A stretch of 45,721 nt of DNA from a bacterium (GTDB lineage: Bacteria; Patescibacteriota; Minisyncoccia; Sungbacterales; SURF-37). Every line of letters begins with the position of its first letter. Positions within the stretch are counted from its first letter, which is position 1. Below are positions 5,053 through 25,075 of this stretch, one piece after another. A program made the translations under genes and the position numbers. Location: positions 1 through 45,721 of the forward strand of contig JAUSHI010000009.1 of the NCBI GenBank assembly GCA_030648055.1. The letters run 5' to 3'. A model generated the notes under the pieces. The model made no database searches. It was given only the letters and a program-made list of their open reading frames with translations, and had not been told where the DNA came from.

Positions 5053-5094
5053 GGAGTTTTGTCTCCGACGTTATGTCGGAGCAACAAAACCCTT

Positions 5095-5354
5095 ACCCAA
5101 CACATAACTTTATGTATTACGTATATTTATTGAAAAATAATACAAAGAATGAGATATACATTGGATATACCGATGATTTGGAGAGAAGACTTAAAGAACA
5201 CCAACGGAAACACCCCGAGCTTGTGTATTATGAAGCATACAAAGCAGAAAAGGATGCCAGAACGCGTGAAATAAAATTAAAGCAACACGGTCAAACTAAA
5301 AGAAGATTAAAAGAGAGAATTCAGCGCTGCCTTACGTAAAGTTATGTGCTGGGT
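5095..5354. mobile_element. Family B inverted-repeat element carrying a GIY-YIG ORF
   Basis: ACCCAACACATAACTTTA (5095-5112) and TAAAGTTATGTGCTGGGT (5337-5354) are 17/18 complementary and abut the start and stop codons. Confidence 0.7.
5112..5339 (+). CDS. Small GIY-YIG nuclease
   Basis: MYYVYLL...IYIGYTDDLERRLKEH...YYEAY...ARTREIKLK. Confidence 0.9.
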   Translation: MYYVYLLKNNTKNEIYIGYTDDLERRLKEHQRKHPELVYYEAYKAEKDARTREIKLKQHGQTKRRLKERIQRCLT

Positions 5355-7142: not shown

Positions 7143-7300
7143 CCCCCAACTCCCGACTACGCGCAAAACATCGCGCGCCGTCGGGACTCTATCAGATTCT
7201 GTGAGAATGCGCATGTCCAGAAACCATAAAAAAGACATTAGGCGTATTCTTGCGGAATCTGATAGGGTAGTTCGTTTCAAATTAATTTAATAAGGTTCGT

Positions 7301-7377
7301 AGGCCCGTAGCTCAAACGGTTAGAGCACGCGATCTATAATCGCGAGGTTGAGCGTTCAAATCGCCCCGGGCCTACCA
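7301..7377 (+). tRNA. tRNA-Ile(UAU), atypical
   Basis: Acceptor AGGCCCG/CGGGCCT, anticodon arm CGCGA-TCTATAA-TCGCG, T loop TTCAAAT, encoded CCA. Has C33 and one T-stem mismatch. Confidence 0.8.
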
Positions 7378-7386
7378 AAAACTTAT

Positions 7387-7463
7387 GCAGCCGTAGCCTA
7401 GTCCGGCAAGGCATCTGACTTTTAAGCAGGAGACCGCAGGTTCAAATCCTGCCGGCTACACCA
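7387..7463 (+). tRNA. tRNA-Lys(UUU), atypical
   Basis: Acceptor GCAGCCG/CGGCTAC (one C-A mismatch), loop CTTTTAA, T arm GCAGG-TTCAAAT-CCTGC, encoded CCA. Confidence 0.78.
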
Positions 7464-7486
7464 AATTTAGAGAAAAGAGAAAAGAT

Positions 7487-7570
7487 ACCGGAGTGGCGAA
7501 ATTGGGAGACGCGCCTGGTTTAAGCCCAGGTGTCCGCAAGGATGTGCGGGTTCAACCCCCGCCTCCGGTA
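7487..7570 (+). tRNA. tRNA-Leu(UAA)
   Basis: Acceptor ACCGGAG/CTCCGGT, CCTGG-TTTAAGC-CCAGG, long variable arm TCC-GCAA-GGA, discriminator A. Confidence 0.88.
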
Positions 7571-7617
7571 TCAAAAAACTGGCGGCAGTGGCTAAACGCA
7601 AAATAAAGAGAGAGGGG

Positions 7618-8016: not shown

Positions 8017-9804
8017 ATGGCATCGGAGAAAAAATTACCAATTAAAGAGGGTTTGCGGGTAATCCGCCGTTCACTCCTTCCCCATAAGAAGGAGTTTTTA
8101 GTCGTGGTCGGGTTGAGCGTTGTACTTGCCGGGGCTAATGCCGTTGTACCCTATATATCCGGCCGGTTGTTTGATGCGATTCTTCATCCTGTGGAGACTG
8201 AAGTCCCTGCTGTAGCGATTAAAATTTCTTCTGTTTTTTTAATGCTCGGAATTTGGACATTTTTACAGTTAGTGGTGGATGCCATGGATTGGCAAAAAGG
8301 CGCGCGACAGGAAAAGTTAAGCGCCGAATTGGAAGCCGACTATCTTGTTCACGGTTTTTCGCGGCTTCTTGAACTGCCGCTTTCGTTTCACAAAACACAA
8401 AAAATGGGCGAAGTGATAAATCGGATTTCTCGCGGCTCCTCTTGGCTTGAAAATTTGGTGAATCGTTTGTTTATTGATCTCTTGCCGCAATTTTTGAGCA
8501 TTATTTTTGCTTTTGCCATCGTGGCATTCGTTCAATGGCGCTTGGCACTCGTGCTTTTCACGGCTATTTTACTTTACGCGCTTCTTTTAACACAGACCGC
8601 GCCGAAGCTTGGTTCAATTTCACGGAAAATGCACCGCGCTTATAACGATGCTTGGGGTTACGCGCACGATGTTGTTTTGAATGTGCAATCGGTAAAGCAG
8701 GCGACTGCCGAGAAGCATGAACGCAAGCAATTTTTTAAATATTATCATACGCGCGCGGCGAATTTGTGGACGCGCTATATGCAAATTTGGCAGCAGTTGA
8801 CACTCTATCAGCGGCTTATTGTTACCGCGATGCAGTTCGGCGTTTTTCTTTATTCAATTTTTCTTATTCAAAGAGGTGTTATTACTCCGGGTGAGCTTGT
8901 GGCGTTTAACGCGTACGCGGCCATGGTTGTCGGACCATTTGTGATTCTGGGCCGTAATTGGGATTTGGTTCAAAACGGTTTTGTAGCGATTGACCGCGCG
9001 GAAAAAATTATAAATCGCGACCCGGAGCCGTATCAGCCCAAAGGGGCAGTCATACTTTCTGACATTAACGGAGCGGTGGAGTTTCGCGATGTGTCATTTC
9101 GTTATCCGGGCAAAAAACAATATGTGCTGAAGAATGTTTCTTTTGTTGTTGAGCAGGGCAGGACCGTGGCATTGGTGGGAGAATCGGGCGTGGGCAAATC
9201 TACTCTTGCCGATTTAATTTCGCGCTATTTTACTCCGGCGGAAGGGAAAGTATATATTGACGGACACGATATTCGGCGGATTGATCTTGCCACGCTTCGC
9301 GCGCATATTGCCGTAGTGCCGCAGGAAATTTTGCTCTTCAACGAAACGGTAAAAGAAAATATCCGCTACGGTTCTTTTCTGGCTAGTGATGAAGCTGTTG
9401 TTGAGGCGGCGAAAAAAGCTCATGCCGACGATTTTATTCAGAATTTTCCTAAAAAATACGGTCAGATTGTGGGCGAGCGGGGCATTAAACTTTCGGTCGG
9501 ACAGAAACAGAGAATTGCCATTGCTCGTGCCATTCTTAGGAATCCCAAAATTTTGATTTTGGATGAGCCGACCTCTGCGCTTGATGCCGTGTCTGAACGG
9601 TTTATTCAGGAGTCGCTTGAAATTCTTATGCGCGGCAGGACCACCTTTATTATCGCCCATCGTTTAAGCACGGTCAGAGAGGCTGACACGATTTTGGTTT
9701 TGGAAAAAGGCCGGGTCATTGAGAAGGGCACCCACAACGAGTTGCTTAAAATTAAAGGAGGGGTGTATAAGAAATTATACGAGATGCAGATTGGAATGAG
9801 GTAA
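8017..9804 (+). CDS. ABC exporter, fused permease/ATPase (MsbA/Sav1866-like)
   Basis: N-terminal TM domain; [31 protein letters not shown] and IAHRLST. Confidence 0.95.
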
Positions 9805-9880
9805 ACCTTCGCACTTAATTTTATTTTTTGTGTCTTCGTAGCTTCCGCCCGAGGCGGCACTACTTTTGGCGGACAGTGGA

Positions 9881-9992
9881 CCCCGCACTAAAAATATGCG
9901 CCCGTAGCTCAACTGGATAGAGCATCGGCCTCCGAAGCTGAAGGTTACAGGTTCGAATCCTGTCGGGCGCGAATGCATATTTTAGTGCGGGG
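9881..9992. mobile_element. Family B inverted-repeat element carrying a tRNA gene
   Basis: CCCCGCACTAAAAATATGC ... GCATATTTTAGTGCGGGG (18 bp complementary, one bulge). Confidence 0.75.
9898..9971 (+). tRNA. tRNA-Arg(CCG)
   Basis: Acceptor GCGCCCG/CGGGCGC, TCGGC-CTCCGAA-GCTGA, ACAGG-TTCGAAT-CCTGT; CCA not encoded. Confidence 0.93.
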
Positions 9993-10061
9993 CAGGTGCC
10001 GCGCGGCCATCCGAGGGCTGTAATGGCAGTTCGAATCTGCCCGAGGACACAATTGTAGAAT

Positions 10062-10114
10062 TGAAGAGGCCGCAGGTTTAAATTCCTGCCTGCCGGCAGG
10101 TCGCCGAGGGTGCA
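10062..10114 (+). pseudogene. Degenerate tRNA 3' half with a CCTGCCTGCCGGCAGG palindrome
   Basis: AGGCC-GCAGG-TTTAAAT-TCCTGC...CGAGGGTGCA resembles variable loop, T arm and acceptor; palindrome at 10085-10100. Confidence 0.4.
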
Positions 10115-10151
10115 AAAATAGTTTTAAAAAAACACGCCGGTTGGCGTGTTT

Positions 10152-11171
10152 TTATTTTAGTCGGTTGTTGAAGTGGTTGAAAATTTTATAATCGGCATAG
10201 TGTCCTCCAAAAATGGTGAGCGAGAGCAAAAACGCGAATTTGTGTCCGGTGCTGTATTCAACGCGTTCCGGACGGCCGAGCGCTTCCCAGAGCGACTCAA
10301 CAGAGTATTTTCCGAACCAGCGGTCGTCCTCGGCGCTGATAAAAAGCACGCGCGCTGGATTAATCATTTTAGCCCATGTTGAGGGGTCAACGCTTGCGAG
10401 CTGCGAGAGAATTTTCTTTTCAAACATTTCCGCATTCCAGCCGAATCTGTTCATGGTTATTTCGCGGGTCCTTTTGAGGCCGGGTTCGTCCGATATCGCG
10501 AACACATTGTGAAACTCGCCGCCGCCTTTATCAAAAACTCCGGCTTTTATTCTCGGGTCGGATGCCATGGCAATTACAGAGATTGATGCCGCGATTGAGC
10601 CGCCGACGATGCCGATGTTTTTTGAATCAATTTCTTCTCTGGTTTCCGCCCAGGTTATCAGGCGGCGGACATCAATAACGTAGTTATTGATGGCATTAGC
10701 CGACGCTTCAACGGCTTGCATAAATTTTGTTTCTGTTTTCGCTCTCTGCATTTCTTCAAGATACAATATCTTTTTTGTGTCTTTAAGGAGGAGAACATTA
10801 AAATCGTCATTGTCGCCCCACGATGTCATGACATGCGCATAGTGCGCACCCACGAACGGTGTGCTATCCATAATCGGCAGAACGATGATGAGTTTTTTCT
10901 TTCCGCCAGTTTTTTGGGCCCAGTATTCGGCTTTCACCACTTCATGTTCGTTGATAGACGGAAAGGTGATGATGTGTCTGGAAATTTTTTCCTCATTGGG
11001 CGACCAGCCGCGAGTAATTGTTGCGGTGGGGATTTGCGGGCGAGAGGAGAAATTAGGAATTCTTCGCGATGGCGGTCTTTCTCCCGCAGGCGGGGATTCG
11101 TGGCGCACGGTTATACAGCTGGGCAAAAAAATAATGAGAAGAATAAGCGTAATTTTACCGAAGATACTCAT
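10152..11171 (-). CDS. Alpha/beta-hydrolase fold protein, probable lipoprotein
   Basis: Hydrophobic signal ending FLPSC; IGIVGGSIAA nucleophile elbow, AEDD acid and TGH histidine. Start taken at ATG 11171 (alternative GTG 11183). Confidence 0.75.
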   Translation of the reverse strand: MSIFGKITLILLIIFLPSCITVRHESPPAGERPPSRRIPNFSSRPQIPTATITRGWSPNEEKISRHIITFPSINEHEVVKAEYWAQKTGGKKKLIIVLPIMDSTPFVGAHYAHVMTSWGDNDDFNVLLLKDTKKILYLEEMQRAKTETKFMQAVEASANAINNYVIDVRRLITWAETREEIDSKNIGIVGGSIAASISVIAMASDPRIKAGVFDKGGGEFHNVFAISDEPGLKRTREITMNRFGWNAEMFEKKILSQLASVDPSTWAKMINPARVLFISAEDDRWFGKYSVESLWEALGRPERVEYSTGHKFAFLLSLTIFGGHYADYKIFNHFNNRLK

Positions 11172-24166: not shown

Positions 24167-24207
24167 TTTTATAAAACAACCGCTACTGTAGCGGTTGTTT
24201 TATAAAA
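24167..24207 (-). terminator. Terminator palindrome after ssrA
   Basis: TTTTATAAAACAACCGCTAC-T-GTAGCGGTTGTTTTATAAAA. Confidence 0.75.
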
Positions 24208-24699
24208 TGGAGGTGGTCGGAATTGAACCGGCGTCCGGACCATATTTTTCCAAGATGTACTACGAAGATATCTCCATTGGTGTTTCACCGAGCCGGTAAT
24301 AATGGAGCAAAAACCGGTTTGGATAAAGTTCGCTTTTTGTCGTCCCGATCCACGAACGAAAATTGGGACCAAGCTTTATGTATGACACCCGTGATCCTAA
24401 GTCATCATATTGCTTTCGCAATTTGATGACCGGACGATCAATCCCGCAAGCGGGATTGATTTAGTCTGCCTATTAAGCTTCGGCAGGCGGATGGTCTACG
24501 TGGCCGAACCGTTAGGTTCTAGGCTTAGGCGTAAACAGGAGCGAGCTTATCGTTGCCACCACCAAAAGCGGCCGCAAAGACATTACTCACTTTCGTAAAT
24601 AAGTTTGCACTTATTGTTGTGCCGATGATTTACGAGGATACGGCACCTCCTCGCCTCGCATCTTGAATTTTCAATGATTCGTCGAAGCCTTTCACCCCC
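24208..24699 (-). ncRNA. ssrA: tmRNA
   Basis: 5' GGGGGTGAAAGGCTTCGAC; 3' GACGCCGGTTCAATTCCGACCACCTCCA with G3-U70. Tag frame ANLFTKVSNVFAAAFGGGNDKLAPVYA* (24608-24525). Near smpB. Confidence 0.93.
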
Positions 24700-24769: not shown

Positions 24770-24823
24770 TTTAGCCTAAAATGTTCGGGCGATCAATCCC
24801 GCCTTGGCGGGATTGATTTAGCC
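24770..24823. repeat. Family C hairpin repeat
   Basis: TTTAGCCTAAAA..TCGGGCGATCAATCCCGC-CTTG-GCGGGATTGATTTAGCC; homologous to 28616-28672 and 24435-24464. Confidence 0.75.
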
Positions 24824-25075
24824 CTTTCTAAATTTTTTTATCAGATTTTTCTTAAATCTGCCAGCCCATAAACTTTTCAGAAATCTTTCTCGGTTAAAGG
24901 CCGCGCCTTTATTTTCGAAACTTTCTGAATGTATAATTGTAAACGGTCTTCGCGTACTAGTTGAACTAACTTTTCCAGAGTTGTGTTTTTGCAGTCTCTT
25001 TTTCAGGTTAGTAGTACATCCAGTATAGAGCTTGCCGTCTTTCCCGCTTAGCAATATATACACGAAATAGGGCAT
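24818..25075 (-). CDS. Small GIY-YIG nuclease
   Basis: MPYFVYILLSGKDGKLYTGCTTNLKKRLQKHNSG...ST..RRPF...RERFLKS. Confidence 0.9.
   Translation of the reverse strand: MPYFVYILLSGKDGKLYTGCTTNLKKRLQKHNSGKVSSTSTRRPFTIIHSESFENKGAAFNRERFLKSLWAGRFKKNLIKKFRKG

Follow-up and report, generated by a model that had tools for sequence, protein, structure and literature searches.

The DNA analyzed here (“the window”) is the first 45.7 kb (45,721 nt) of a 245-kb contig from a 614-kb bacterial genome that is ∼85% complete in 9 contigs. The size and the relatives of this genome agree with Patescibacteria/CPR, and the presence of a tmRNA gene marks the organism as a bacterium. The window contains a tRNA-Arg(CCG) gene that is interrupted twice in its D arm, the second time by a short cassette bounded by inverted repeats and carrying another, intact tRNA-Arg(CCG) gene. 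From its sequence, we regard the outer gene with considerable confidence as a relic and the inner gene as the working gene. The resident tRNA-Arg(CCG) was probably overwritten at the DNA level by a cassette that follows a “replace what you break” logic.

Architecture of the nested tRNA-Arg(CCG) locus

All elements that the initial annotation had described between 9832 and 10049 were found at those positions (Table 1). The inner gene was matched by the Rfam tRNA model at 9898-9971 with 69.5 bits (gathering score 29) and was called tRNA-Arg(ccg) by ARAGORN at 9897-9972. It is carried in a 112-nt insert (9881-9992) that lies in the D loop of the outer gene. The inverted ends of this insert, given previously as 18 bp, consist of two perfect blocks of 13 nt (9881-9893 / 9980-9992) and 9 nt (9891-9899 / 9975-9983) that are offset by one A/T and together give ∼18 pairs, slipped by 1 nt. 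Nucleotides 1 and 2 of the inner tRNA take part in the final two pairs of this stalk. The outer acceptor stem, which had been reported as fully paired, pairs 9832-9838 with 10042-10048 through six Watson-Crick pairs and one G-U, and complementarity extends to as much as 11 nt. The outer anticodon arm, with CCG at 10011-10013, and the T arm are intact, again as described. When the smaller hairpin at 9844-9873 was deleted in silico, its flanks joined as a normal-looking 5′ part running from the acceptor to the D loop, in agreement with the earlier reading of this element as an insertion into the D arm. Orthologous loci 3′ of the ABC-transporter gene were located by tblastn, and in two relatives (G039 and G001:C42) the same transporter gene lies directly 5′ of a nested tRNA-Arg(CCG).

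Table 1. Features of the nested locus in the window and of related nests on other contigs of the same genome (prefix G000)
Feature	Position	Strand	Remarks
ABC-transporter gene	8017..9804	+	From ORF list; synteny marker of the locus, 5′ of the nested unit
Outer tRNA-Arg(CCG), whole	9832-10049	+	218-nt unit, interrupted twice in the D arm
Outer gene, 5′ piece	9832..9843	+	Acceptor 5′ strand (9832-9838), positions 8-9, first three D-stem bases
Palindromic insert in outer D stem	9844..9873	no strand	30 nt, GC-rich, TCCGCC...GGCGGA family
Outer gene, last base of D-stem 5′ strand and D loop to A20	9874..9880	+	Cassette directly 3′
Stalk 5′ arm	9881..9897	+	CCCCGCAC... family; abuts nucleotide 1 of the inner tRNA
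Inner tRNA-Arg(CCG), intact	9898..9971	+	Rfam, ARAGORN
Unpaired 3′ spacer, discriminator base to stalk	9972..9976	+	Five bases; CCA not encoded
Stalk 3′ arm	9977..9992	+	Inverted-repeat pairing
Cassette-linked segment	9993..10002	+	10 nt; in place of host D-loop end and D-stem 3′ strand
Outer gene, 3′ part	10003..10049	+	Position 26, anticodon arm (10004-10020), variable loop, T arm (10025-10041), acceptor 3′ strand (10042-10048), discriminator
Terminator-like hairpin and T run	10128..10153	+	3′ of the whole unit
Nests with a GIY-YIG ORF and an intact tRNA (Ile-GAU, Lys-UUU, Ala-UGC, Arg-UCG) in or beside cognate halves	Next three rows		Four nests
GIY-YIG nest	G000:C9:28250-28900	-	Ile nest
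GIY-YIG nests	G000:C7:48271-48880 and 48980-49450		
GIY-YIG nest	G000:C8:7740-8190	-	
ORF-less nest or remnant, Val(CAC)	G000:C2:22756-23011		
ORF-less nest or remnant, Glu(CUC)	G000:C9:84722-85000	-	
ORF-less nest or remnant, Glu(UUC)	G000:C2:46172-46391		

No protein ORF was present in 9805-10151 except for mechanical antisense frames, and a simple promoter scan of the + strand found no sigma-70-like site 5′ of the unit; use of the A/T-rich inner part of the stalk as a -10 element is a speculation. The predicted folding energy of a 236-nt region containing the unit was -104.6 kcal/mol versus -81.3 ± 4.4 kcal/mol for shuffled sequences (z = -5.3), and none of 200 shuffles equaled it.

Several candidate features were rejected. 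A second ARAGORN call at 9979-10050 combines the outer 3′ part with a stalk arm, has a bad acceptor stem and gave no Rfam signal, and was not accepted as a gene. Weak Rfam matches to Plastid-ycf2 (antisense to the tRNA), YrlA (13.5 bits) and isrK (on the terminator) were attributed to chance. A 7-nt complementarity between 9854-9860 and 9996-10002 was also treated as chance because it is absent from homologous loci.

Condition and origin of the outer and inner genes

The 3′ part of the outer gene is 89-91% identical to the uninterrupted tRNA-Arg(CCG) genes of three relatives (G052, G027 and G042), a divergence no greater than that among working orthologues. Due to this identity and to the shared position beside the ABC-transporter gene, the outer gene is, by sequence comparison, the resident tRNA-Arg(CCG). 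For its 5′ part, identity to intact tRNA-Arg(CCG) genes in relatives is 68-84%. Uninterrupted genes with a normal 3′ part of the D arm are known in relatives (L013, L014 and L016); the outer gene has lost the host D-loop end and D-stem 3′ strand, and the 9993-10002 segment occupies their place. Its anticodon loop carries A32 and G38; the intact Arg(CCG) genes compared have C and A there.

With both inserts deleted in silico, a test set beforehand, ARAGORN scored the outer gene as a 77-nt tRNA-Arg(ccg), and deletion of either insert alone gave no call. In the ARAGORN fold of the excised gene, the D stem pairs at 1-2 of 4 positions. Compared with a bacterial tRNA, the gene therefore retains the 7-bp acceptor stem, T arm and anticodon arm, and the D stem of 3-4 pairs is absent after excision. 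A search of 9750-10150 with RF00005 at E≤10, in which the outer gene was scored as it stands and not in uninterrupted form, returned no match besides the inner gene. We read the outer gene as a relic because of the lost D-stem 3′ strand, the A32/G38 loop and the palindrome in the D stem; an imperfect D-arm 3′ strand had earlier been taken to favor a pseudogene, and the additional defects strengthen that view.

The palindrome belongs to a family, TCCGCC(3-20 nt)GGCGGA, with 17 copies in the genome versus 0-3 in 20 Markov shuffles; examples begin at 9844 and 10645 in the window and span 64346-64375 of contig C7. Some copies precede T runs and resemble terminators, some are in tandem, and two lie in a tRNA-Lys gene read as dead. 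Look-alikes occupy many sites in relatives. One relative (G004) has a tandem double hairpin of equal length at the site of the window palindrome, and another (G034) has the same outer 5′ part with no palindrome.

The inner tRNA is the only good Arg(CCG) gene found in the assembly by a whole-genome Rfam search, and is presumably functional. It is 69-74% identical to the resident Arg(CCG) type, versus 88-89% to tRNA-Arg(GCG) genes carried by the same stalk in three relatives (G004, G001:C6 and G044) and 84-86% to free tRNA-Arg(TCG/GCG) genes. Judged by these identities, the inner gene is foreign to the locus and comes from another tRNA-Arg lineage that travels with the inverted repeat. The enclosed gene had been annotated as complete and divergent, and both properties were borne out. 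The damaged outer gene and the separate lineage of the inner one also lend support to the proposal, made with that annotation, of a mini-element that replaces the tRNA it disrupts.

The same stalk, 3′ segment and GCG cargo occur in a metagenome contig (L207), the single locus returned by a metagenome pattern scan for the cassette. Segments identical or nearly identical to 9993-10002 follow the cassette in other hosts (G001:C6, G044, L207 and G001:C42). The genes that house GCG cargo are readable as Arg(GCG) in G001:C6 and L207; in G044 the acceptor stem is of the Arg(GCG) type and the anticodon arm is unreadable. In G034, the CCG cassette lies in a gene that is of the resident Arg(CCG) type by its acceptor stem, with the anticodon arm deleted and the whole partly collapsed by recombination. 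One cassette lineage thus occupies two isoacceptor genes, with CCG cargo in Arg(CCG) hosts and GCG cargo in Arg(GCG) hosts, and the anticodon stem-loop is where the differences between the two cargoes are concentrated. The pattern is repeated by a second stalk family, whose cargo is TCG in an Arg(TCG) gene (G024) and CCG in the Arg(CCG) gene of G039, with identical junction sequence. Cargo and host anticodons were the same in all 15 nests that are legible for both, as judged by eye; several other nests are too decayed. The G039 stalk is wholly different in sequence from that of the window, has 17 perfect pairs, and is inserted a few bases earlier in the D loop, which suggests that this gene was interrupted independently in G039. 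Every arm of the G039 outer tRNA-Arg(CCG) is intact around the insert.

The stalk 5′ arm is flush with cargo nucleotide 1 in other stalked cassettes as well, and their 3′ spacers measure 1-5 nt. The window cassette is single-copy, and no second copy of its arms exists in the genome. Its flanks are not direct repeats, so no target-site duplication was seen, and no empty-site allele was present among contigs aligned to the locus from three DNA runs of one study.

Recurrence of nests and their association with GIY-YIG ORFs

At least eight nests or remnants, including the window locus, were found among the 30 tRNA genes of this genome. The other seven or more involve Val(CAC), Glu(CUC), Glu(UUC), Ile(GAU), Lys(UUU), Ala(UGC) and Arg(UCG) (Table 1). 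In the tRNA-Val(CAC) nest the insert lies 3′ of the anticodon, the tRNA-Glu(UUC) remnant has a duplicated 12-nt 5′ end, and the Ile nest on contig C9 is flanked by a ∼34-nt direct repeat of host sequence. ARAGORN and Rfam gave a total of 29-30 tRNA genes, and found none for Met, Phe, Tyr, Trp, Asp, Arg(ACG/GCG) and several other anticodons in this ∼85%-complete genome. These genes may lie in the missing 15% or may be interrupted beyond recognition. A tight cluster of tRNA-Ile(UAU), tRNA-Lys(UUU) and tRNA-Leu(UAA), two of which encode CCA, is also present in the window (7301-7572, + strand). Its Lys(UUU) and Leu(UAA) genes duplicate genes at other loci of the genome, a CCCGAC...GTCGGG palindrome (7152-7185) immediately precedes it, and it may have been acquired horizontally.

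A strict pattern for the CCCCGCAC stalk matched 9 of 62 genomes of the order (8 of 61 besides the present genome), with no matches for the reversed control, and, when the phylum was sampled evenly, 1 of 400 further genomes. Cargo within the order comprised Arg, Val, Lys, Asp and Pro tRNAs; over all matches, Thr is added. A looser pattern scan of genome contigs gave chance matches in GC-rich genomes, with one Patescibacteria-like record among the matches listed, and was set aside. The same stalk and 3′ extension with related cargo were found in different hosts and contexts, in several genera and two families. Other stalk families share the C-rich outer end and A/T-rich inner end. When 11 insert junctions were mapped by script, eight fell in loops, three at helix boundaries and none inside a helix. 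This avoidance of helices hints either at recognition of a folded nucleic acid or at a stage when folding of the outer tRNA was still required. The 23 stalks contained 15 mismatches, a small sample, of which two were of the G-U type and three of the A-C type.

In G032, a relative with a closed genome of 923 kb, the 70 intact tRNA genes cover all amino acids and include three CAT genes; 11 of the 70 have a flanking stalk. All eight of the stalked tRNAs inspected there lie inside remnants of the same identity, nested up to four deep (for example, the four-layer Ile(GAU) nest at ∼683700-684250). Since the tRNA set of this genome is intact and full, the outer genes are needed for none of it. The same genome has a 21-gene tRNA array (G032:C1:439820-442718) that duplicates much of its tRNA set. 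Separately, a cargo-less hairpin with CCCCG... termini interrupts the anticodon of an Arg(GCG) host in L207 (∼950-990) and at the homologous site in L003 (G001:C6). The two hairpins differ by several compensatory double changes, so pairing has been maintained even inside a dead Arg(GCG) gene.

Small GIY-YIG ORFs are a second recurrent component. In the present genome, five of the seven have a tRNA or tmRNA gene at a distance of 15-170 nt, and four of the five are inside nests; some GIY-YIG ORFs of G032 likewise adjoin tRNA genes. The proteins are 80-121 aa long, consist of the nuclease domain alone, and give a weak, below-cut-off match to a group I intron endonuclease model. These positions suggest a link between the nucleases and the nests. 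A tblastn search with the seven small proteins found no GIY-YIG ORF within ∼1.5 kb of cassettes of the window's own family at 38 loci in relatives. Two GIY-YIG ORFs are bracketed by inverted repeats: an 88-aa ORF in the window (5073-5336, + strand; 2 kb from any tRNA gene, repeat of ∼16 nt) and one at G000:C7:49035-49247. Stalks thus clamp nuclease ORFs as well as tRNAs.

In the window, smpB and the tmRNA gene (24205-24699) are separated by an 85-aa GIY-YIG ORF (24821-25075, - strand). At 495 nt, the tmRNA match is longer than its model of 374 positions, a similar palindrome is present just 5′ of the gene and within it, and the gene may have been invaded in the way that tRNA genes are. The genome also encodes a 332-aa group II intron-like reverse transcriptase (L208, G000:C4:21504-23307). 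It scored 142.7 bits, where the family cut-off is 300, and a GIY-YIG ORF at the contig end is ∼1 kb away; nothing was found to connect the enzyme with the nests.

Proposed mechanism, alternatives and related systems

The cassette consists of the CCCCGCAC-family stalk and a full tRNA-Arg gene, with a short extension on the 3′ side. We propose that it entered the D loop at the DNA level, after A20, and replaced the host D-stem 3′ strand, and that this replacement killed the host gene. The cargo tRNA, which reads the same codon, would then be transcribed from the position of the old gene and released by the ordinary tRNA end-processing enzymes. Once dead, the outer gene would have gained the further small palindrome and the loop mutations. 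The lineage would have passed from one tRNA-Arg isoacceptor gene to another, the anticodon agreeing with the host in each case; gene conversion, or homing into homologous tRNA genes, is the likeliest route. The small GIY-YIG nucleases of sister nests may help in this, the window cassette itself coding for no protein; that homing driven by these nucleases moves the cassette is a tentative suggestion, and we would not favor it at present. Several observations count against the cassette model: the cassette encodes no nuclease or transposase, is single-copy and lacks a target-site duplication, no empty-site allele was seen among the aligned contigs, and the outer 3′ part has diverged no further than working orthologues have from each other. 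A stalk that is flush with cargo nucleotide 1 and followed by a short 3′ spacer is also more than a DNA terminal repeat needs, and this flushness and the avoidance of helices do not fit a plain DNA transposon.

A different reading of these last features, which we consider unlikely, is that a stalk-clamped tRNA is a structure-guided invader of the single-stranded loops of tRNA genes or transcripts and has no transposase of its own. The stalk would mark the unit for processing by tRNA enzymes and RNase III and would join the host halves, so that freshly invaded outer tRNAs, such as the intact-looking one of G039, might for some time work in two pieces. The GIY-YIG proteins would then be nucleases that recognize the structure of the extruded stalk, not sequence-specific homing enzymes.

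The nest could also have arisen in place and with no mobile element, by duplication or recombination of tRNA-Arg paralogues followed by the addition of palindromes, the stalk being a leader-trailer processing helix. Inner and outer layers do recombine frequently, giving chimeras in G034 and G001:C42, the C9 Ile nest has its 34-nt direct repeat, small palindromes occur genome-wide, and the genome holds one copy of the cassette. We nevertheless judge this origin quite improbable: the same stalk and 3′ extension with related cargo recur across hosts, contexts, genera and both families, one stalk family carries six kinds of tRNA, and the inner gene belongs to another tRNA-Arg lineage than the gene around it.

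Removal of the inserts from RNA, the second option raised by the initial annotation, fares slightly worse and is a distinctly doubtful reading. A 218-nt precursor would have its inserts removed, or its outer halves held together by the stalk, and would yield both the inner and the outer tRNA-Arg(CCG); the insert would in effect be an intron of a bacterial tRNA and a tRNA at the same time, a notion to which we give equally little credence. The flush stalk and the spacer of 1-5 nt where CCA belongs agree with such a precursor, as do the location of all 11 mapped junctions in loops or at helix boundaries, the intact arms of the G039 outer gene, the RNase III encoded in the genome, the strong structure of the region and the ARAGORN call obtained after excision. 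In the window, however, excision still leaves the outer gene unable to form its D stem and positions 32 and 38 are abnormal, and many outer genes elsewhere are truncated, chimeric or missing whole arms. Searches of the 85%-complete genome for RtcB (PF01139) and the tRNA splicing endonuclease (tRNA_int_endo, PF01974) returned no match, with positive controls. G032 needs no outer gene, and stalk mismatches show no excess of G-U, given the small sample. Cargo and host read the same codon, so a second product adds nothing.

An assembly chimera of two strains' tRNA-Arg loci is scarcely credible. The window does belong to a metagenome-assembled genome, cross-mapping is favored in tRNA regions, and tRNAs of other organisms raise the depth over 9874-9955. 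But a 35,222-nt contig, built with another assembler from a public run that may be of the source sample (and so possibly from the same reads), has no differences over 9300-10500 and no alternative joint, so that the misassembly earlier named as a refutation was not observed, and the same architecture recurs in several relatives, a closed genome and a metagenome contig.

Among described systems, the nearest is, by analogy, SegB of phage T4. SegB is reported to be a free-standing GIY-YIG homing endonuclease in a tRNA gene cluster that recognizes a tRNA T-loop motif and, by “intronless homing”, drives inheritance of itself and of neighboring tRNA genes (PMC2330249). The two systems share a GIY-YIG gene among tRNA genes (here in sister nests), a tRNA gene as target and replacement of the recipient region. 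They differ in that the window cassette has no ORF, that replacement takes place inside the cognate gene with both halves kept and a conserved stalk clamping the cargo, and that the GIY-YIG proteins here are domain-only, their cleavage being putative.

Archaeal non-canonical introns and split or tri-split tRNA genes are processed by bulge-helix-bulge splicing. They resemble the nests in interrupting D, anticodon and T loops, in having a helix that joins exon halves and in their apparent mobility among tRNA genes. Here, however, the organism is a bacterium, its outer genes decay, and the insert is a complete tRNA whose anticodon is that of the host. No bulge-helix-bulge motif was seen on inspection of the predicted fold, in which the junctions flank a continuous helix with 1-nt bulges, and the archaeal-type splicing enzymes are those sought above with no match in the 85%-complete genome.

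Integrative elements target tRNA genes and restore them with their own copy of the 3′ part, which is the same logic applied to an essential tRNA gene. In contrast, the present element has no integrase and no att-type direct repeats, supplies a whole tRNA, and is ∼120 bp long and located in gene loops. Bacterial MITEs, REP, Correia and RPE-type elements are short, ORF-less, bounded by inverted repeats and hairpin-forming. The cassette shares their terminal inverted repeats, and the cargo-less palindromes in outer genes resemble this class; the cassette differs in lacking a target-site duplication, in being single-copy and in carrying a presumably functional, target-matched tRNA, and no Y1 transposase (Y1_Tnp) was found in the genome. 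Bacterial tRNA group I introns have a ribozyme core and are inserted in the anticodon loop. No intron family was among the Rfam matches at the locus, where the 112-nt insert lies in the D loop.

Insertions in rRNA genes of CPR bacteria include short ORF-less inserts at the tips or bases of stem-loops, and some encode GIY-YIG proteins outside introns, according to a survey in which tRNA is not mentioned (PMC11270868). These inserts likewise interrupt stable-RNA genes in the same group of organisms, but carry no replacement gene. In a preprint that maps bacterial tRNA group I introns, no mention of nested tRNA genes was found. The archaeal introns and split tRNAs, the integrative elements and the MITE or REP-type palindromes each have one aspect in common with the window cassette, which lacks a defining feature of each. 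No published description of tRNA genes nested in tRNA genes was found in searches of open full-text articles, and the overwriting of essential tRNA genes by small cassettes is apparently undescribed.

In these groundwater bacteria, with genomes of 0.6-1 Mb, tRNA genes are single-copy and essential, yet a considerable fraction seem to have been overwritten by cassettes that supply a replacement of their own. If this is correct, it would be a third way for a selfish element to persist in an essential gene, beside self-splicing introns and inteins and the restoration of 3′ ends by integrase elements. It would account for duplicate, weak and fragmentary tRNA calls in the annotation of Patescibacteria. 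It would also provide a route for the exchange of tRNA backbones and anticodons between isoacceptor genes; in the present genome, a GCG-type backbone would now be the sole tRNA-Arg(CCG). Finally, the nests would be natural test cases of how far the tRNA fold and its processing enzymes tolerate insertions.
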